A stretch of 64,000 bases of DNA from Methanoregula sp. (GTDB taxonomy: Archaea; Halobacteriota; Methanomicrobia; Methanomicrobiales; Methanospirillaceae). Of this stretch, positions 55,272 through 63,811 are shown piece by piece (position 1 is the stretch's first letter; each line of letters begins with the position of its first letter). The notes under the pieces were generated by a model. The model saw only the letters and a list, made by a program, of their open reading frames with translations, ran no database searches and was not told the origin of the DNA. A program made the position numbers and the translations under genes. The stretch spans positions 4,024-68,023 of the forward strand of contig JAPKXX010000045.1 of assembly GCA_026394595.1 (NCBI GenBank). Direction: 5' to 3'.

Positions 55272-55289
55272 GACAACAGTACTTCCGAA
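55259..55289. repeat. Perfect 13-5-13 palindrome formed by two element tips head-to-head
   Basis: TTCGGAAGTACTG-GACAA-CAGTACTTCCGAA. Confidence 0.9.
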
Positions 55290-55330
55290 TATCTCGTCAG
55301 ACGACGGGATTGCATTTTTTACGGATCTTG
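55277..55330 (+). repeat. Outer terminal inverted repeat, left
   Basis: CAGTACTTCCGAATATCTCGTCAGACGACG-8 nt-TTTTTTACGGATCTTG. Its partner is at 63758-63811. Patchy similarity continues inward, including ATGGCGGGACTTT at 55365-55377. Confidence 0.85.
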
Positions 55331-55528
55331 AGCGTGGAAAATTGTTCCGATACGGTTCTGTTGCATGGCGGGACTTTGAAGCCCTAAACAAAAAGGATTG
55401 TGATACTTTTGCGGTTCTTTGATTCAAAATGGAAAACTGATGTGTGGCAATTGGTGGCTGGTGGAACTAAGAAAATATATATCCTCATAAAAAATATTGC
55501 TGTAAAAAGAGCAAGTAGTTGTAACAAT

Positions 55529-56023
55529 ATGGCTGAGCTGGTGGAACTCAGTTCATTTATCAATTTCTTACATAAAGAAATTGAATTTAATTTCAATTTG
55601 AATAGTTTTGACTGTAGATTTCGATTGCAAAAATTTGTTTTTTTAGCCAAATTTTTCGGATGGCATAATGATTATTCTTATGGTATTTATTTGAGGGGGC
55701 CATATTCGCAAGACTTGGCTGCTCATTATTATTCTTTCAAAAAAATTGACATTAGATCCGTCCCCACAATCGAATTGACTACATTCGATAAAAAGGCTTT
55801 TCTTAATCTAATTAGGAATAAAGAGGATTTATGGCTTGAAGCAGCTGCAACAATCATATCAATGATGGATAGTTATAAGGTCCATTATAAGGGAGATGAT
55901 TTAAAAACCAAAGTCTTGGAGCGAGTGATTGATTTAAAAGACGAGATTCCAAGATCTGTTATAAATACGGTATACCAAGATTTATCAAGTGCGGGAATTT
56001 TTTCAAATATTGTAAAAGCATGA
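55529..56023 (+). CDS. Panacea/DUF4065-like (SocA/GepA-type) putative antitoxin
   Basis: The start is taken at the ATG at 55529. The sequence FRLQKFVFLAKFFGWHNDYSYGIYLRGPYSQDLAAHYY resembles the KLQKLLY...GP(Y/V)S core of DUF4065. It overlaps the next gene by 4 nt (ATGA). Confidence 0.5.
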   Translation: MAELVELSSFINFLHKEIEFNFNLNSFDCRFRLQKFVFLAKFFGWHNDYSYGIYLRGPYSQDLAAHYYSFKKIDIRSVPTIELTTFDKKAFLNLIRNKEDLWLEAAATIISMMDSYKVHYKGDDLKTKVLERVIDLKDEIPRSVINTVYQDLSSAGIFSNIVKA

Positions 56024-56526
56024 GAGATCCACCTCGGCATGTTCATATTGACACTCAATATCTATATGCATATGTAGTCTCCCGTGGTCATGATGAAGAA
56101 TCTGAAAGGAAAAAACAGATACAAGAGTTGATCCATAATAAAAACCCAAATGTGAAGGCAATAATCTCATTTACAGCCGTTGGAGAAACCTTTAACGAAA
56201 TAAATGAAAAAATTACGCATCCAAGAGAGCGAAGACGGGCGATAAACGAATTTATTGATTTATTATCTGAAAAAAGAGTTGATTTGAAACCGGCTAATGA
56301 ATCGACATTTAAAATAGCTCATAAGATAAAAAAAGAAGACCCACGATTAGACGATACTGATATTTTGATAGTTTCACAAGCAATATGTGATAAACTGGCA
56401 TATTTGGTGTTGTTTCAAGATAGTAAAATCATAGAATCAGAGGTAATAAAAGATTATTGCGTAAATAGAACAAATAAGGATGGTTATGAGTGTGTTTTAA
56501 AAATTAAAGAAAATTATTCTCGATAA
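56020..56526 (+). CDS. PIN-like nuclease-domain protein (putative toxin)
   Basis: The acidic residues are spaced as in PIN domains: HIDTQYL, AVGETF, LDDTDILIVSQAI, LFQDSKI. Confidence 0.5.
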   Translation: MRDPPRHVHIDTQYLYAYVVSRGHDEESERKKQIQELIHNKNPNVKAIISFTAVGETFNEINEKITHPRERRRAINEFIDLLSEKRVDLKPANESTFKIAHKIKKEDPRLDDTDILIVSQAICDKLAYLVLFQDSKIIESEVIKDYCVNRTNKDGYECVLKIKENYSR

Positions 56527-56585
56527 TTATTTTATAGCCGCCAATCCGATCATCGTTTCCCATCAGATTGATCGGGATGTTTGCC
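56527..56585 (+). repeat. Inner 59-nt inverted repeat, left copy
   Basis: It matches the reverse complement of 61154-61212 at 54 of 59 positions, with a 39-nt perfect core at 56540-56578. It contains an internal hairpin CCGATCA...TGATCGG. Confidence 0.9.
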
Positions 56586-56608: not shown

Positions 56609-57826
56609 TTACAAATTGAGAGTTGTTTGTATAGCCCTCCGTTTTTTAGGAACTCTATTATGAGGTGGAGGGCCCGTTCCTATTATTTCAAACACATGGA
56701 ATAGCGCCTTTCCAAACAACAGAGCCGTGATGAAAGGTACTTTCTTAACAACCTGCTCTGATTTGGACAGAATGATATTGACCAATTCCCATAAGTTGTA
56801 AAGACAGACGCTGAAAAAGAAATAAAATAGTCGTATAATGTAATTTTTCGACGTTGTTTTTGGTCTGAACCCATTTATAACCCTATAAGACGTCTCTATC
56901 CCCCATCTCTTTTTGTATAATTGTGGAATACGATGAGCTGAGAGACGAGATACATTTAAATTCGTAATAAAAGCTATCTTTTTACCGTCTTTATCATACG
57001 TGATAACAACGTTGGTGAGGATATTTTTTTCTGTGGTTCCTATACGATAATTATTAATGATTTTTGGTGCTTCGTGTTGCCGAAGTAATTTTTTAATTCT
57101 TGGATTGAGAGTGGCAGGCATTATGTAATGAATATCCATATTATTTAACATCGAAATGACATCAATTGAGAAAAAACCTCGGTCAAGATATACATTGTTG
57201 ATGTTGATCCTGGCTTTCGCATAACTCACTAATTCGTGTACGATTTCTTTTCTTGATATGACTCCATCAACAGGAACCGTTTTGATAGTTAATCTGCAAT
57301 CTTCATCTACTATAGTCAAAGTGGCAAATCTGTATGCTTTAGATGTCCCTCGCTGTGGTTTGGTTCCGACAACCATCGGATCATTTCGATCTCCATAGTA
57401 AAGTTGGTCGGTTGCATCGACTGCAATATCAACTTTACCTCTTAAGAATCCATTCTTCTTTGCTATTGTGATGATTTCATCAATAGCTGATTCGAATCCT
57501 GATATGAGCTCTTGGGGTTCAAATTTTTTCAAATGATACAGGAGTGTGTCAGCATTTGGACAGCCGTTACGCGAATCAATGATTAGGCTCTGTGAACTCC
57601 CCTCCGCGAAATAATTATGAATTCCTGTATACGTTAGCAATTTCAAATAATCATTTTGGGTATATTTGCGCGTATAGGGAATTTTGAGTTTAATATTTGG
57701 CAGCAGAACCTTTTTCGTAAGTTGCCATATTTTTCCTGTCCAACGGCTCCGCTTATTGCTAATAGATTTATTACTTTTAACGCCTTGATCCTTTACTGCG
57801 GAGTTGGTTGCTTTCACAGGTACCAC
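56609..57826 (-). CDS. DDE transposase (IS4/IS5-superfamily type, possibly ISH3-like)
   Basis: 405 aa with AVDATD, YLDRGF and YKKRWGIETSYRVINGFRPK (the Y-R-E-K-type signature). The start is GTG. A paralogous truncated copy is at 53090-53887. Confidence 0.85.
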   Translation of the reverse strand: MVPVKATNSAVKDQGVKSNKSISNKRSRWTGKIWQLTKKVLLPNIKLKIPYTRKYTQNDYLKLLTYTGIHNYFAEGSSQSLIIDSRNGCPNADTLLYHLKKFEPQELISGFESAIDEIITIAKKNGFLRGKVDIAVDATDQLYYGDRNDPMVVGTKPQRGTSKAYRFATLTIVDEDCRLTIKTVPVDGVISRKEIVHELVSYAKARININNVYLDRGFFSIDVISMLNNMDIHYIMPATLNPRIKKLLRQHEAPKIINNYRIGTTEKNILTNVVITYDKDGKKIAFITNLNVSRLSAHRIPQLYKKRWGIETSYRVINGFRPKTTSKNYIIRLFYFFFSVCLYNLWELVNIILSKSEQVVKKVPFITALLFGKALFHVFEIIGTGPPPHNRVPKKRRAIQTTLNL

Positions 57827-58010: not shown

Positions 58011-58223
58011 ATGGGTAGAATCGATGTTATCCTTCCAGATGACCTTGAAGAAGAGTTCAGAATGGAGGTCGCCAAAGAACTGGGAATGAGAAGAGGTAAC
58101 CTGACCATAGCGTTACACGAAGCGATCAAATTATGGATAGAAACACATCAACAGAGAAGAAGCGAGATCGCAAAAAAAGCATGGGCAACAAGAAAGGAGA
58201 AAAGGGGGGAAGACAATCTTTAA
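58011..58223 (+). CDS. Ribbon-helix-helix (CopG/Arc-like) DNA-binding protein
   Basis: The ATG is at 58011. The product starts MGRIDVILPDDLEEEFRMEVAKELGMRRGNLTIALHEAIKLW, which fits a beta-strand - helix - helix layout. Confidence 0.6.
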   Translation: MGRIDVILPDDLEEEFRMEVAKELGMRRGNLTIALHEAIKLWIETHQQRRSEIAKKAWATRKEKRGEDNL

Positions 58224-58326
58224 AGAATAATTAATATTAATCACAAAAGTTTTTATTTTCACCCTGCGAGCGACAGATCAATATACAATCAACTTCATAT
58301 ACTTTTTTAAATTGGAGAGATGCTAA

Positions 58327-59097
58327 ATGCAAAGTTGCCAGGTATTTTTGAAAGAAAACCGGCCTAAAATATCAATAATATACGAACCGCGAGGAAAAGC
58401 AAGAGAATATTGTGAATTAGCAGCAAATCTCTACCGGGGATGCAGCCATCGCTGCACTTATTGTTACGCTCCTGCAACCCTATATATGTCAAGAGAAGAA
58501 TTTTGCAGACCGAGTGTTAGAATAGATGTCATAAATAAATTTGAAAAGGATGCTACTATATTAGAGAGAATTGGTGAAAAGCGTCCGATTTTATTATCCT
58601 TCACTACTGATCCCTATCAACCGCTTGATATCAAGGAACAACTCACAAGAAAAGCGATTCAAATATTACATAGACATGGATTAAAGGTTTCAATTCTAAC
58701 GAAAGGCGGCAGACGTTCAGAAAGAGATTTTGATCTGCTATCGAAACATCCAGAATTGAGTGAATACGGGGCCACTTTGGTTTTTACTGATGAAAAGTAT
58801 AGAAAAGAGATTGAGAGCGGGGCAGCACCAACAAAAGAGAGGATAGATTCAATTAAGAAAGCGCATGATATGGGGATTTTTACTGATGTATCGCTTGAAC
58901 CTGTATGGATACCTGAACAAAGCCTTGAATTAATCGATTTAACAAAAGATTTTGTTGATTTTTATAAAGTTGGGAAATTAAATTATGATATTCAGGAGAA
59001 AACAATCAATTGGAAGGAATTTAAGAATGATGTTATTAAAAAACTAAAAGATTATGGAAAGAAATATTATATCAAAAAAGATCTACAAAACTATTGA
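58327..59097 (+). CDS. Radical SAM protein, SplB/COG1533 (DNA-photolyase-like) type
   Basis: It has CSHRCTYCY (CxxxCxxC) at residues ~39-47, then SFTTDPYQPLDIKEQLTRKAIQIL and ILTKG, as in the SplB-like rSAM group. GGAGAG lies upstream. Confidence 0.8.
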   Translation: MQSCQVFLKENRPKISIIYEPRGKAREYCELAANLYRGCSHRCTYCYAPATLYMSREEFCRPSVRIDVINKFEKDATILERIGEKRPILLSFTTDPYQPLDIKEQLTRKAIQILHRHGLKVSILTKGGRRSERDFDLLSKHPELSEYGATLVFTDEKYRKEIESGAAPTKERIDSIKKAHDMGIFTDVSLEPVWIPEQSLELIDLTKDFVDFYKVGKLNYDIQEKTINWKEFKNDVIKKLKDYGKKYYIKKDLQNY

Positions 59098-59117
59098 AAA
59101 ACTTGTAAGATACATTT

Positions 59118-60214
59118 ATGCCACTTCCGACTATTTGGTCTATTGAACCCCATACAGAAGCTAAACACAGAATTCTGGAAGAATATTTAAAAGCATGGTT
59201 CCCTATCCTATCGAGATTTCATAAACGAATCTTATATATTGACGGTTTTGCCGGTCCAGGGGTATACGAAGAAGGTGAAATTGGTTCACCGATAATTGCT
59301 CTTCAATGTTTGTTAGAACATAAGCATAAGTTATACCAAAGATCCGTAGAATTTAATTTTTTTTTATTGAGAAGGACAGGGAAAGAGCTGAGATACTTGA
59401 TCGAACTATAAAAGAAAGATTTCCTGATTTGCCAAAAAATGTTCAATATGGTGTTTATCCTGCCGATTTTGAAGCAGCTATGAGTGATATATTAGATAAC
59501 CTCGATAAAGAAAAAAAGCGTCTTGCTCCCACATTTGCATTTATCGATCCATTTGGGTATAGCGGATTGCCATTTTATTTAATACGGAAAATTCTCTCAT
59601 TCCCTCATTGCGAAGTTTTCATAAATTTTGCTTATAGTTCAATCAATCGATTTATAGATACTGAAGATAGTAGAACAGAAATTTTTGACAGTTTATTTGA
59701 AACATCCAAATGGCGTAAGATTAGGGAGATAAATGATCCGACAGAGCGAAACCGACAATTAGTTTCACTTTATACTGTTCAGTTGAAAACTGCTTCGAGA
59801 TATGTCAGATCGTTTGAAATGGAAGATAATGTCGGTAGAATCTCATACTATCTTTTCTTTGCTACAAATCACGTCAAGGGATTCGTAGAGATGAAAAGCG
59901 CGATGTGGCGGGTAGATTCAAGAGGTTCATTCCGTTTTGCTGATACAACAGATACCGATCAAAGATTTTTGTTAGACTTTGATAAAACCTCCTGATACCA
60001 AAATCAAGCCGAATTTCTTTATCAGCATTTTGCCGGAGATACCGTAACAGGAAAAACCGTGATGGATTTTTGTGAAGAAGATACAGGATTCCCGACCCGT
60101 TGGTCTAAAAGTTTAAAAATTTTAGAGACTTCCCAACAAATAACTGTGACAAATAGAGAGAGAAGAGGGATTTATCCCCCCGGATGTGAGATCACATTTA
60201 AAAGGCTTAATTAA
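59118..60214 (+). pseudogene. tcmP: TcmP-like (three-Cys-motif partner protein family) gene, disrupted by a poly-T frameshift and an in-frame TGA
   Basis: The N-terminal reads WSIEPHTEAKHRILEEYLKAW...LYIDGFAGPGVY. The frame shifts in the T9 run at 59357-59365. It continues FFFIEKDRERAEILDRTIKERFPDLPKNV...FAFIDPFGY to the TGA at 59993-59995. The same frame then stays open (YQNQAEFLYQHFAG...CEITFKRLN) to the TAA at 60212-60214. Confidence 0.6.
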
Positions 60215-60624
60215 AAGAGAATAATCGACATTCTTACAGATATCCCTTGTATTACGGAGATGATTGATTATAGGAATTGTAAAAAGAGGTCTTAAAAATG
60301 AAATGCGAATACTGTGACAAAGAAATGGATGCCAATGACCCAAATTATGCTAAAAGTAACATTCACTACGATTGTGCAACCAAGCTTTTTTTTAAAATTC
60401 TATATCAGAAAGTTACGTAACTTTCTATAGTAAGATGAATATACAGGGGGCATAGAATTCTGCTATAGAAATCTCAAAACTTACCTTCTGCACACATTTA
60501 ACCTATTAAAAATATCAGAAGCGCATTACCAACCACGTGCTAGCGTAATTAACCGTAGACGAATCAGAAACCGAATTAGAATAATAATAAATATTGCATT
60601 ATCTTAGTTCTTCTCGATGTAGTT

Positions 60625-61065
60625 ATGCCAAAGGTCCAAAGTAATTTAGTTGAGAAATGTCTGCGGGATTTGTTGAGAGAGAGAGATTATAAAATGAATG
60701 AGATCCGCGGTAATGGAGAGACGGGAGTGGATATTGAGGCGAGAAAGGGTGATAATGTCTTTCATATTGAGGTGATTAGTTATAAGAAGAAAGGTCCGGC
60801 GAGATCTAAAGATTTTTTCCAGGTTTTTTTCAGAGCCATTTCACGATTAAATGATGGTGCTACCCATTGTGTCATTGCATTACCACTCGAATTTGAAACA
60901 GGATTGCCAAAAAGAGTCAAACAATATAAAATTGCTTGGGAAAGAATTGGTAATGTTTTTCCAGAATTGGAAATATGGTTAGTTGATCCTGAAAGTAAAA
61001 AGTGTAAACGTACCAAATGGATAGAGTGGCTTGATACCCTAGTCCAAGGTCTGGTAGTATCATAG
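60625..61065 (+). CDS. Small PD-(D/E)XK nuclease-fold-like protein (putative)
   Basis: 146 aa. The sequence GETGVDIEARKGDNVFHIEVISYKKKG fits a D...E-x-K-type core as in Hjc/Mrr-like nucleases. It is convergent with the methyltransferase. Confidence 0.4.
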   Translation: MPKVQSNLVEKCLRDLLRERDYKMNEIRGNGETGVDIEARKGDNVFHIEVISYKKKGPARSKDFFQVFFRAISRLNDGATHCVIALPLEFETGLPKRVKQYKIAWERIGNVFPELEIWLVDPESKKCKRTKWIEWLDTLVQGLVVS

Positions 61066-61153
61066 GTCTGACGGTTGCAGCGGCGGGTTTGTTTACTGCG
61101 GGTGGATGTGCCCGGTGTGCGGGATGATGCAAAAGGATTAATCCCGCACAGAT

Positions 61154-61212
61154 GGCAATTATCCCGATCAATCTGATGGGAAACGATGATCGGATTGGCA
61201 TCAATAAAATAA
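61154..61212 (-). repeat. Inner 59-nt inverted repeat, right copy
   Basis: It is the reverse complement of 56527-56585 (54 of 59). It lies 3 nt beyond the methyltransferase stop codon. An adjacent GC hairpin GCGGGAT/ATCCCGC is at 61119-61147. Confidence 0.9.
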
Positions 61213-61215
61213 ATT

Positions 61216-62769
61216 TTAAATTTGTAATTCCGCTTGTTTCTCTAATTTCATTTGTTCTAATAATAGAGATAATTTATTAAAATCAGATATTTTTGGTTTC
61301 TTCCGACCATGCATCTGAGTAAAAAACTTATCGAGATCCTTATAGTATATGAACTTCCATCCATATTGATGAATTTCATCACTAAACTTACGCTCTCGAA
61401 GTTTACGATTTAAGAGTGGTTTTCGTTCTTCTGGTATGATAATAATACGATTCAGACCATCAACATTGAGATTAGATCCGCGATCTATTGCCTCACTAAT
61501 ACCTGTTGTATTTTCAACTTCAAACTCATATTTTGGTTGACCATTTTTGAGCCAGATTGCATCAATTTCCTTAACTCGATCTGGATTATCACAATCAAAA
61601 GGTAATGATTTTACACGTCTCCCTGTTATATCAGCAATTACATCAAATCCAAATTTTTCTCCTATTTGAGCAATATAATCAACCATTATATCGTGTTGAC
61701 TGATCCTGATAGATACTGATTGTTTAAGTTTCCACTTTTTATCATCTGTTTTTTCAGCGTAATCGTTTAAAACTTCTTGAATTGTTGTTGTTTCTGGGGT
61801 TAAAGCATTGGGAAAATGAATGTAAACCTCTTGGAGGATTTCATCAAAACCTAGCTGGATCTCACGATTAAGTGCATTAATAACAACTTTTTCAACACGT
61901 TCTTTTAACGGGACTCTATCAATATACGGTACAATTGCTGGATCAGCAAACCACAATTTTTCGTCAACAATTACAAACTCTTTTCCAATATGTTTATTCA
62001 AAACGTCATCTATCGATTGTGATGCCGAAAAGAGAAAACCCTCTTGCTTAAGCCGGTCGTAAATATCTGAGTAACTATTGACAATTAACGAGTATTCTGT
62101 TGGTTGCCCCCTCTCAGCAATTATCCTTTTTATAGTCTCTACAACAACTCGTTCAAATGTAACTATGTCGGGTTGTTTTATTTTAGATGTGTCACGGGGT
62201 TGTGAGGGTTTTTTAAATCTTATATAATAATCACCAAAAGCACTACCATAAGGTGCGAGTTGTGATTTTGGGGACTTGCGAGCTGGGGGTTGATAAATAA
62301 TTTTTTCCAAATCAAAACCAGCTAAAATGCATGCTCGAATTATATCATTATATATTTCCATTTTCGCGTTGTTGAAAGTAATCGTTAGGTATTTTGAAGG
62401 TTTCAATACCCGATAGATTTCACGAAATGCTTTTGCTAGGAGTGTATAATATGTTTTATTATTCTTATCCTTCCGAACTGGACTATCACTAATACATATC
62501 TCTTCATCAAAGTCTGGTTTAAAACCCAACCAAGATGCCCACATATAATTAAGTTCAAGATATGGAACATTATCACCATAGGGAGGATCAGTAAATACGT
62601 AATCTATACTATTCTCTTTTAATTCTGGTATTGAATTTAAGTCGGTAGCAGAATGTGTATAGATTTTAAAATTATTATCTGAATATTTTGAAGAAAGAAG
62701 TTTATTTGATTCTTCTTTCCCTTTTACCAATTTCTCAAATTTATTTCTAAAAAAACGCCAAACATTCAT
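61216..62769 (-). CDS. DNA methyltransferase, C-terminal ORF (motif IV DPPY plus large C-terminal region)
   Basis: It contains IDYVFTDPPYGDNVPY. The C-terminal ~130 aa (EIDAIWLKNGQPKYEFEVENTT) look nuclease-fold-like. It is in the same frame as 62776-63573, separated only by TGA-TAT-GAA. Confidence 0.75.
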   Translation of the reverse strand: MNVWRFFRNKFEKLVKGKEESNKLLSSKYSDNNFKIYTHSATDLNSIPELKENSIDYVFTDPPYGDNVPYLELNYMWASWLGFKPDFDEEICISDSPVRKDKNNKTYYTLLAKAFREIYRVLKPSKYLTITFNNAKMEIYNDIIRACILAGFDLEKIIYQPPARKSPKSQLAPYGSAFGDYYIRFKKPSQPRDTSKIKQPDIVTFERVVVETIKRIIAERGQPTEYSLIVNSYSDIYDRLKQEGFLFSASQSIDDVLNKHIGKEFVIVDEKLWFADPAIVPYIDRVPLKERVEKVVINALNREIQLGFDEILQEVYIHFPNALTPETTTIQEVLNDYAEKTDDKKWKLKQSVSIRISQHDIMVDYIAQIGEKFGFDVIADITGRRVKSLPFDCDNPDRVKEIDAIWLKNGQPKYEFEVENTTGISEAIDRGSNLNVDGLNRIIIIPEERKPLLNRKLRERKFSDEIHQYGWKFIYYKDLDKFFTQMHGRKKPKISDFNKLSLLLEQMKLEKQAELQI

Positions 62770-62775
62770 TTCATA

Positions 62776-63573
62776 TCAATTGGGAGGAATCCAATAACCT
62801 CTTACTTTCCAACCCGGACCTTGCCCTGGAGTATAAACAAGCAATTTGGAAGCTTGGGGAAGCGCAGCAGAAAAAGCGAATTTCATCATATTGCGGATAT
62901 CTGTATCGTGAATTTTGTTGATTCTATTGAACAGAATTGAGAGTGCTATAAGATTTCGCTTGCTGAAAAGATCAGATACTTTTGTACCTTTTGCGATGTT
63001 TACTCTAGTATTCCAAATTAGCTCGTTTTTGGGATACCAATAAGGTATTTTCTTTTTTTCAATATCAGTAATTTTTTTTATGTCTGTGGTTGTTAAATCC
63101 TTGATACCTTTATCCTTACAATTTCCATTTTCACATTCATAGGCAATCTTATTGGGTTTGTTATTCGAATATGTGATATAATAAATTATAGCATCATTGC
63201 GACATTTTGGGCAAGAGGTTTTAAAATAACTTAAAATTTCATCTTTTACATCGGTCTCAATTTTTGTAAATTCTTTTTTCAAACTGGTGATACTTATAGG
63301 CAACGCAGTTAAAGATGCAATAAAGTTTCCAACCTGATCAAGATCAACACCAATTGCTTTGCGTCCCAATCCGAGAGCTTCAATCGCTGTTACACCTGAT
63401 CCAGAAAACGGGTCAAGGACGATATCACCCTTTTTGGAATAATGTTCGATATATGTTGCAACAACATTGTCTGGTTTTCTAGCCCAATATTTGTGAATAT
63501 TATACATTGGAGGATGAAGGCGAGCAACCAATGCATGATTAATATGTGAGATTGATTCACTTTTCGCTTTCAT
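62776..63573 (-). CDS. DNA methyltransferase, N-terminal ORF (SAM motif I plus zinc ribbon)
   Basis: It contains KYWARKP...VLDPFSGSGVTAIEA (FxGxG) and CPKC...CENGNC. It ends at the TGA at 62776-62778, in frame with the downstream ORF. Confidence 0.75.
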   Translation of the reverse strand: MKAKSESISHINHALVARLHPPMYNIHKYWARKPDNVVATYIEHYSKKGDIVLDPFSGSGVTAIEALGLGRKAIGVDLDQVGNFIASLTALPISITSLKKEFTKIETDVKDEILSYFKTSCPKCRNDAIIYYITYSNNKPNKIAYECENGNCKDKGIKDLTTTDIKKITDIEKKKIPYWYPKNELIWNTRVNIAKGTKVSDLFSKRNLIALSILFNRINKIHDTDIRNMMKFAFSAALPQASKLLVYTPGQGPGWKVRGYWIPPN

Positions 63574-63757: not shown

Positions 63758-63811
63758 CAAGATCCGTAAAAAACACAGGTTCGTCGTCTGACGAGATATT
63801 CGGAGGTACTG
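63758..63811 (-). repeat. Outer terminal inverted repeat, right
   Basis: It is the reverse complement of 55277-55330 with 7 mismatches. Two GCGGGACTT-type subterminal motifs lie at 63643-63655 and 63681-63690. Confidence 0.85.

Follow-up and report, generated by a model that had tools for sequence, protein, structure and literature searches.

Gene pairs encoding a TcmP protein (TIGR04474) and a partner with a three-Cys motif have been catalogued, and PADLOC lists TcmP together with DUF5131 as the candidate systems PDC-M30 and PDC-M41. The PDC systems are 145 phage defence candidates that were proposed from their embedding within BREX, DISARM and Type I restriction-modification (R-M) loci (bioRxiv 10.1101/2024.01.29.577857). 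No test of the anti-phage activity of M30 or M41 was found in the literature, and later surveys merely count them. The three-Cys partner is itself a divergent relative of radical SAM enzymes, and in RadicalSAM.org DUF5131 (phage Gp37/Gp68-like) is placed in megacluster 5 beside spore photoproduct lyase (SPL) (PMC9477430). The locus considered here, at positions 58011-60214 on the + strand of a 64,000-nt stretch of a Methanoregula metagenome-assembled genome (MAG; the whole stretch is referred to as the window), encodes a TcmP protein next to a radical S-adenosylmethionine (SAM) enzyme and is best filed, on the basis of its sequences, as a partner-swapped variant of the catalogued TcmP/three-Cys-partner pair. 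A first-pass annotation of the window had proposed it as an undescribed system. The pair is not undescribed, because TcmP with DUF5131 is already present in PADLOC as PDC-M30 and PDC-M41, and the kind of system has therefore been catalogued both there and as the TcmP/three-Cys pair.

Three + strand genes were found across the region by open reading frame (ORF) scan, each where the first-pass annotation had placed it. These encode a small putative DNA-binding protein of 70 aa resembling ribbon-helix-helix (RHH) proteins (58011-58223), an intact radical SAM enzyme of 256 aa with a predicted SPL-like fold (58327-59097), and TcmP, which is a pseudogene (59118-60214). The reading favoured here is that such a module carries out joint SAM-dependent modification of DNA bases in conflict with viruses or mobile elements. 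This is given an even chance of being correct, and the substrate, the chemistry and the biological role in it are all proposals.

The TcmP gene starts 20 nt after the end of the radical SAM ORF and reaches position 60214 in three pieces (59118-59411, 59429-59995 and 60059-60214). Hidden Markov model (HMM) searches bear out its assignment to the family, as TIGR04474 matches the N-terminal piece with 78.3 bits (E 8.6e-22, profile positions 1-76) and the middle piece with 128.8 bits (E 3.3e-37, profile positions 81-262), both above the cut-off of 53 bits. The motifs on which the assignment had been based, EPHTEAKHRILEEYL, YIDGFAGPG and FIDPFGY, are present and lie on invariant columns of the TcmP family alignment. 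An intact homologue, P0121, scores 234.5 bits against the same model, and the repaired window TcmP is 68% identical to it. The three pieces also match PDC-M30A (PDLC04567) with E 1.1e-16, 7.1e-35 and 3.6e-5, covering positions 5-380 of 381.

The partner is where the locus departs from the PADLOC candidates. At E<=0.01 there is no PADLOC match for the radical SAM ORF, and PDC-M30B is not matched, whereas true DUF5131 partners match PDC-M30B or M41B with E of about 1e-100. A relative of the window protein, P0038, reaches only E 7e-4. The protein has no Pfam match to DUF5131 (PF07505), and the weak PF07505 matches carried by some of its close homologues (24 bits for P0038 against a cut-off of 28.9) would indicate relatedness to DUF5131 rather than membership. 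Shared with PDC-M30 and PDC-M41 are the TIGR04474 TcmP, the arrangement of two tightly linked genes without a third conserved gene, and the status of a candidate. The window partner differs in being a canonical CX3CX2C radical SAM protein of the PA0069, Rv2578c and mobile-pair-B flavour, not DUF5131/PDC-M30B. Further differences are the RHH gene, which is attached in some loci, and the decay of the window copy. All three resemblances, to PA0069, Rv2578c and mobile pair B, are far under the NCBIfam cut-offs.

The radical SAM mobile pairs are a second point of comparison. DUF5131-type partners of TcmP match mobile pair A (TIGR04471) with E 1e-22 to 1e-27, and the window radical SAM protein matches mobile pair B (TIGR04470) with E 2.5e-12. 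Association with mobile elements is common to these pairs and to the module; however, the scores are far under the equivalog cut-offs (46.7 vs 410 bits), and the window pairs its radical SAM protein with a protein of methyltransferase fold instead of another radical SAM enzyme.

Conservation of the pairing was assessed from both sides. For TcmP, one genome per species was searched, which gave 347 relatives; the best 80 were kept and 81 non-redundant loci analysed. Partners were sought in all six frames within 1.5 kb of TcmP with HMMs built from the neighbours. A neighbour of the radical SAM superfamily is present in every one of the 81 loci, with a median gap of 4 nt. Most partners (61 of 81) are of the DUF5131 type (PF07505), 17 are SPL-type proteins of about 350 aa (PF20903), and three are of the type found in the window. 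The spacing of the Cys motif is CX6CX2C in the DUF5131 partners examined and CX3CX2C in the window partner. All three groups, DUF5131, SPL-type and the window subfamily, are Cys-triad radical SAM relatives. In the reverse survey, a metagenome scan with the radical SAM family gave 577 relatives, from which the 21 closest were kept (L087-L107; 63-80% identical to the window protein, with L097 at 65% and L100 at 63%). A gene of the TcmP family adjoins the radical SAM gene in all 21. In 10 of these a full-length TcmP lies downstream on the same strand; the TcmP-family neighbour of the others is a divergent protein of about 320 aa that lacks the C-terminal domain and is usually encoded on the opposite strand. 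A representative of this divergent group (L089) passes the TIGR04474 cut-off with 76.5 bits, and HHalign aligns the group profile with that of TcmP at a probability of 98.4%.

The adjacency of the two genes is therefore conserved, and the first-pass annotation, which a lack of conserved adjacency would have refuted, stands in this respect. It had described a two-enzyme module of RHH, radical SAM and TcmP genes; the pair is real, but the radical SAM protein is itself the three-Cys partner and not an additional enzyme. It can hardly be credited that two unrelated cargo genes simply came to lie side by side on a transposon. The segment in which the cassette lies, bounded by inverted repeats, does hold several unrelated genes, yet incidental adjacency is refuted by the co-occurrence at 81/81 TcmP loci, with so short a median gap, and at 21/21 loci of radical SAM relatives in many contexts. 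No third conserved gene, such as a nuclease or helicase, was found around the 81 TcmP loci, and selection therefore acts on the two-enzyme module as a unit.

The flanks in the wider TcmP sample include R-M methylases, components of MADS, DISARM and Druantia, SMC-like ATPases and also housekeeping genes. A Type ISP enzyme flanks the module in L004, at the place where the window has an Mrr-like gene. An EVE domain gene (PUA-like, modified-base-reading) directly follows the intact module of a Methanoregulaceae MAG (L001, 10107-10580), again at the place of the Mrr-like gene.

The radical SAM ORF is 100% identical to P0001, an NCBI 'radical SAM protein [Methanoregula sp.]', and matches PF04055 in Pfam with 61.8 bits (E 1.2e-16, cut-off 29.5). 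It contains CSHRCTYCY at residues 39-47 and TTDPYQP at residues 93-99. The cluster motif is C39-x3-C43-x2-C46 (CX3CX2C), with C39, C43, C46, Y45 and Y47 invariant among 42 homologues. The structure model (pLDDT 91.5) is a partial TIM barrel that matches many radical SAM structures. In Foldseek the best Protein Data Bank (PDB) match is the spore photoproduct lyase 4fhc (E 6.3e-9, TMq 0.71, 290 aligned columns), followed by maturases of ribosomally synthesised and post-translationally modified peptides, lipoyl synthase and viperin. The match to Pfam above threshold and that to SPL in structure agree with the SplB/COG1533 flavour recognised in the first-pass annotation.

The resemblance to SplB (4fhc) thus consists of the best structural match and the CxxxCxYCY cluster context. 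In contrast, the window protein is 13-15% identical to SplB, has 256 rather than 340 aa, and belongs to a family whose closest clade is always paired with TcmP. It fails the SPL families, scoring 18 bits (E 0.0014) for PF20903 against a cut-off of 27 and giving no match to TIGR04070 or TIGR03886. In the alignment of 42 homologues exactly three Cys, those of the cluster motif, are invariant or nearly so, and no fourth is conserved; C140, the catalytic residue of SPL in the 4fhc series, appears to have no evident counterpart. The protein is predicted from its model to have a fold like that of a DNA-lesion-flipping radical SAM enzyme, but it is not an SPL.

This fold raises the alternative of a DNA repair module, in which the radical SAM protein would be a lyase that reverses an ultraviolet or radical lesion and TcmP an accessory that recognises the lesion or binds the DNA. 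Besides the structural match to SPL and the weak Pfam match, homologues of the window protein have been labelled 'DNA repair photolyase' by JGI annotators, the Tyr after the third Cys is kept in CxxxCxYCY (Y98 of the Geobacillus thermodenitrificans SPL is a studied residue, according to PDB entry names), and COG1533 SplB-like genes are LexA-regulated in several phyla and are thus SOS-regulated (PMC8565304). Repair is nevertheless considered unlikely. A conserved counterpart of the SPL catalytic Cys is lacking, as are adequate SPL family scores, and a repair enzyme would have no obvious use for an obligate methyltransferase-fold partner. The distribution is also sporadic: the genes occur on mobile DNA and, in phages, next to those for DNA methylases and the SAM synthetase MetK.

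Viperin structures match the model at E of about 4e-5 with TMq 0.58, and are thus among the significant fold matches. A nucleotide-pool effector might be envisaged on this ground, with the radical SAM enzyme making a chain terminator or signal from a free nucleotide in the manner of viperin and TcmP methylating or sensing the product; a self-contained two-gene module without a nuclease would suit such a role. SPL is clearly the better match, however (TMq 0.71 vs 0.58), PADLOC gives no viperin match, TcmP has a winged-helix domain, and neither a nucleotide kinase nor an NTP-binding partner is conserved with the pair. This explanation is very improbable.

The structure of TcmP was studied through a model of the intact homologue P0121 (pLDDT 84.5), the numbering of which is used for TcmP residues. 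The model has a seven-stranded class I methyltransferase core, a helical insertion of 50 residues and a C-terminal winged-helix-like domain, in the region of which there are weak PF22560 matches. Strand 37-42 is followed by DGFAGPG, strand 79-86 ends in E86, and strand 139-144 is followed by DPFG. Invariant residues of the family are D42, G43, G46, G48, D145, P146, F147 and G148. The N-terminal helix is also highly conserved, as PHTxAKHxIL..YL..W. Foldseek gave 113 PDB matches at E<=1e-3, and nearly every one of the best 50 of the 113 is a class I methyltransferase or a related enzyme of the SAM fold, for example an aminopropyltransferase. Among the matches listed, the best are RlmJ, Trm1, Trm5a and other class I methyltransferases, at template-modelling (TM) scores of 0.37-0.51 and about 10% identity. 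A search of BFVD found no viral structure closely related to TcmP, the matches being generic methyltransferase folds at TM of about 0.3. Together these results support the prediction of a methyltransferase-like protein. For both TcmP and the radical SAM family the structural links are those made by Foldseek, since profile searches against PDB sequences, SPL chains included, gave chance-level matches only.

GFAGPG, which had been read as Rossmann motif I, does lie directly after strand 1 of the class I fold in the model. The reading of DPFGY as motif IV was right in so far as the motif follows strand 4, but it is better described as a Trm1-type DPFG than as a degenerate DPPY. Trm1 has its motif at the equivalent place (DLDPFGSP in the alignment with Pyrococcus horikoshii Trm1), which points to TcmP being of the Trm1 type of amino-methyltransferase rather than a DPPY enzyme. 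Trm1 (2dul/2ytz) and RlmJ (4blv/6qdx/7p9i) have in common with TcmP the class I fold and stand among its top Foldseek matches, and with Trm1 it shares DPFG after strand 4. TcmP is without significant sequence similarity to either, has its own N-terminal helix and C-terminal winged helix, and is mobile and conflict-associated, not housekeeping.

The family comprises 5,258 clusters at 50% identity (E<=1e-10) among 1.84 billion and occurs in Archaea and Bacteria. The longer TcmP proteins in the representative library contain no informative fusions, only low-complexity or uncharacterised extensions. Two of these (P0399 and P0502) have in common a further stretch of about 70 residues at the C-terminus (…SGG..(L/S)L…(M/V)PGW(Q/E)A..RD.GH..GF.I…), and the remaining long forms resemble products of read-through in high-GC DNA.

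The substrate of TcmP could be RNA, because its closest solved structures are RNA methyltransferases. Combinations of radical SAM enzymes and methyltransferases are common in tRNA modification pathways such as those of wybutosine and ms2i6A. A module that modifies a base of tRNA or rRNA, for instance against anticodon nucleases or ribosome-targeting toxins, would be in keeping with this background, with the likeness to RlmJ (23S m6A2030), Trm1 (tRNA m2,2G) and Trm5a, and with the DPFG motif common to TcmP and Trm1. An RNA substrate is rated as unlikely as a role in repair. The distribution of the family is patchy and horizontally mobile, the radical SAM protein is nearest in fold to an enzyme that acts on DNA, and a winged helix at the C-terminus is seen more typically in DNA-binding proteins; in phages, moreover, homologues of the radical SAM protein lie in a region of DNA methylase, ParB and terminase genes.

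This phage connection of the window-type radical SAM family is new in the present analysis. The window ORF matches phrog_13321 at E 1e-29, and a scan with the window-type protein gave 397 relatives in viral contigs, of which 80 loci were examined. TcmP is beside the radical SAM homologue in none of the 80. TcmP itself is rare in viral contigs, with 18 relatives, 17 of which have a radical SAM superfamily partner of the DUF5131 or SPL type. Upstream of the radical SAM gene the viral loci contain genes for ParB_N proteins, ParB-N6_N4 DNA-methyltransferase fusions, or methylase-like proteins of about 190-230 aa; downstream are the small and large terminase subunits and the portal protein. Any of the three upstream gene types is within 3 kb of the radical SAM gene in 54 of the 80 loci, and the small methylase-like gene in 30; the large terminase subunit (TerL) is found within 3.5 kb in 44. 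Compared with the cellular module, these phage ParB-DNA-methyltransferase modules likewise combine radical SAM homologues (45-66% identity) with amino-methylase-fold proteins, but not with TcmP.

Phage MetK is encoded in 6 of the 80 viral loci (L205 and L209-L213; for example L212, 175-1332). In these it lies directly upstream of the ParB or methylase-like and radical SAM genes, with the terminase following, and such loci form a compact block of SAM supply and SAM consumption.

The small methylase-like proteins are encoded directly upstream of the radical SAM gene in both viral and metagenome loci (e.g. L183 642-1223 and L151 687-1304). They have an N-terminal DNS...K..LR helix, a Gly-rich motif and D-x-D-x-Y-G-S-P, and give no significant Pfam or NCBIfam family match. 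Their profile matches Trm1 at E 9.8e-5, centred on DxD(P/A)(F/Y)GSP (DLDPFGSP in Trm1). They were considered as TcmP homologues and rejected, as the profile-profile comparison is not significant (probability <1%) and only the DxYG/DPFG motif aligns.

On both the host and the virus side, the radical SAM clade accompanies amino-methyltransferase-fold proteins and SAM supply. The DNA methylation and packaging neighbourhood in phages is the strongest argument, although a circumstantial one, for a DNA substrate and for a link with base methylation. The cellular flanks also bear on the link with DNA, through the R-M methylases, the MADS, DISARM and Druantia components, the EVE gene and the Type ISP enzyme. 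The embedding in BREX, DISARM and Type I R-M loci from which the PDC systems were defined, and the LexA regulation of COG1533 SplB-like genes, point the same way.

In the favoured reading of joint DNA base modification, the locus would be a mobile three-gene module of an RHH-type regulator, an SPL-fold radical SAM enzyme and TcmP, the two enzymes acting together on a nucleobase in DNA. TcmP would bind DNA through its winged helix, flip out a base and place a methyl or other SAM-derived group on an exocyclic amine. On that base or one next to it, the partner would activate a C-H bond by means of a 5'-deoxyadenosyl radical, and the joint product would be a non-standard DNA modification. Such a modification may serve host defence, as the PADLOC listing proposes, or protect the DNA of the carrying element itself; of these two roles the first is held tentatively and the second is decidedly doubtful.

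Several observations weigh against DNA base modification by the pair. The structures closest to TcmP are enzymes acting on RNA, and neither TcmP nor the radical SAM protein has a sequence-level match to any solved structure in the PDB profile searches. Many immediate neighbours of TcmP loci are housekeeping genes. The His, Lys and His that are invariant in the N-terminal helix of TcmP are atypical of methyltransferases and could indicate other chemistry. The window copy is non-functional, and the literature search found no functional study of TcmP, DUF5131, TIGR04470, TIGR04471, TIGR04474, PF22560 or PDC-M30.

A wider proposal, for which the odds are rather poor, is that the cellular TcmP/radical SAM pairs and the phage sets of radical SAM, Trm1-like, ParB-methylase and MetK genes install an undescribed SAM-derived modification of DNA bases. 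Such a mark might, for example, be an N-methylated purine elaborated further by radical chemistry, or be based on N2 of guanine. Hosts and viruses would then both use SAM-derived DNA base modification in their conflict, and the interchangeable partners of the DUF5131, SPL and PA0069-like types would represent three lineages within a single radical SAM clade that acts on DNA. Should the pair prove to write a new modification of DNA (or RNA), radical-SAM-dependent chemistry would join the known epigenetic and defence marks, and the common phage gene phrog_13321 would be explained. From the comparison, the phage versions would be expected to work with ordinary DNA amino-methylases.

TcmP is widespread and tied to a radical SAM partner in all sampled genome loci, and the interest lies in the family and its phage relatives rather than in this locus. 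The comparative results provide handles in the form of intact pairs, such as P0005+P0142 (Methanoregulaceae, with an RHH gene) and P0071+P0143, and of the residues C39/C43/C46 of the radical SAM protein and D145/F147 of TcmP. The window copy, as a decaying pseudogene in an uncultured methanogen, is of little experimental value.

Two lesions in the window TcmP were identified by three-frame translation and homologue alignment. The first is one extra base in a T9 homopolymer on the + strand at 59357-59365, which causes a +1 frameshift; alignment with homologues restores ...EFNFFFIEKDRERA... across it. The second is an in-frame TGA nonsense codon at 59993-59995, at a position occupied by K, T or H in homologues, which run on for about 70 residues beyond it. 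The radical SAM gene and the small RHH-like ORF are both intact. The module thus cannot function as a pair in this Methanoregula, and the cassette is decaying.

Sequencing or assembly error is an unlikely source of the lesions, because independent assemblies of different runs match the window without mismatch. Logan assemblies of SRR20698646 and SRR20698647 have 0 mismatches to the window where it is covered. The T9 run is present in both, so that two independent assemblies are identical across the homopolymer, and the TGA is present in L265, the contig that reaches that site.

A DNA methyltransferase gene nearby, of Type II-like character (61216-63573, - strand), is likewise broken. A single gene of about 786 codons is interrupted here by a TGA in frame (62776-62778), with ...IPPN*YEMNVW across the junction. 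Each homologue is one continuous protein (770-830 aa), and 13/15 of those aligned have Arg at the stop column. Both halves of the window gene have N6_N4_Mtase matches in Pfam, and the PADLOC model MTase_II (PDLC03319) is matched at positions 1-217 and 243-430. A fragment of this neighbouring methylase is NTV10_03065 of the same NCBI record as P0001. The gene is a second pseudogene in the island.

Both in-frame TGA codons of the island, those in TcmP and in the DNA methylase, precede a Tyr codon. Recoding of TGA by a donor with an altered genetic code was considered and rejected, as the column is Arg in 13/15 methylases and Lys, Thr or His in TcmP, and TcmP is also frameshifted. A single-step nonsense mutation of Arg (AGA or CGA) to TGA is the simpler explanation for the stop in the methylase.

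The 70-aa ORF that precedes the pair has no significant Pfam or NCBIfam match. Its homologue in L001, which is 85% identical, has a weak RHH_6 match (E 0.0078, 17.2 bits against a cut-off of 27), and by eye the sequence pattern, in which two helices come after a short strand at the N-terminus (RIDVILP), is compatible with RHH. The RHH label is therefore reasonable but unproven, and the protein is probably a transcriptional regulator of the module. Homologues at 80-90% identity adjoin the module in L001-L003/L007 and L089-L091, in three different contexts, and are missing from other loci. The RHH gene can thus be regarded as a cassette member, as had been suggested, in a subset of loci but not in all.

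The cassette lies in a low-GC island (33-39% GC, against about 50-55% in the flanking core) that starts just past ilvC at about 55.1 kb and extends to the end of the window. Divergent from the RHH gene is a DDE transposase of the ISH3 family (56609-57826, - strand), which matches DDE_Tnp_1 with E 1.6e-14 and NF033541 (transpos_ISH3) with E 1.4e-49, the latter under its cut-off. Beyond TcmP is a gene for a small Mrr-like protein (60625-61065, + strand), which matches Mrr_cat weakly (E 4.8e-4; 20.7 bits, cut-off 21) and has no PADLOC or NCBIfam match. With the transposase, the weak Mrr-like gene and the methylase all in the low-GC island, the setting on mobile DNA beside a nuclease-fold gene and a DNA methyltransferase is as the first-pass annotation had described it.

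Inverted repeats of 59 nt at 56527-56585 and 61154-61212, which are 92% complementary, enclose the transposase, RHH, radical SAM and TcmP genes, a tiny Cys-rich ORF and the Mrr-like gene. The Mrr-like gene is thus inside the repeat-bounded segment but is not conserved with the TcmP/radical SAM pair. The core of the repeat has exactly two copies in the window, where none would be expected. The right arm (within ORF 61152-61280) encodes IPINLMGN, the C-terminus of an IS6/IS240-like transposase, and the independent contig L265 ends within this arm. A repeat sequence of about 55 nt is found elsewhere beside the transposase that neighbours the RHH gene (L001 6415-6449, L089 8700-8756, L090 8212-8270, and also L091). 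This transposase is ISH3-like in the window and in L089, and is an intact IS6/IS240-like protein with a SWIM finger in L001 and L090. The presence of two unrelated transposase families at one spot suggests repeated replacement of insertion sequences.

Neither a target-site duplication nor a direct repeat was found flanking the 59-nt arms, no inverted repeat pair of normal ISH3 size was found around the transposase, and no tRNA gene marking an integration site was found. The description of the cassette as transposon cargo is supported by the inverted repeats that enclose it together with a transposase, but not by a target-site duplication, and the repeat looks like the end of a different, IS6-like element. 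Carriage by a transposon is therefore plausible but unproven; it is evident that the module moves about alongside insertion sequences.

Outside these repeats is another inverted pair (55277-55330 and 63758-63811; 54 nt, 87% complementary), the arms of which are separated by 8.4 kb and flank nearly all of the low-GC island. Between them lie a 207-aa ORF with a gene for a PIN-domain protein (55400-56526), the inner repeat-bounded segment and the DNA methylase gene. There is no other copy of this outer repeat in the window. The outer repeats may be the ends of a larger transposon or paired elements resembling miniature inverted-repeat transposable elements. The two genes at the left end of the island, 55400-56023 (207 aa, no family match) and 56020-56526 (168 aa, weak PIN match, E 2e-4), overlap and may be a toxin-antitoxin-like pair. 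The tiny ORF between TcmP and the Mrr-like gene (60298-60420, 40 aa) has a CxxC...C pattern (MKCEYCDKEMD...HYDCATK) and is also called on L265.

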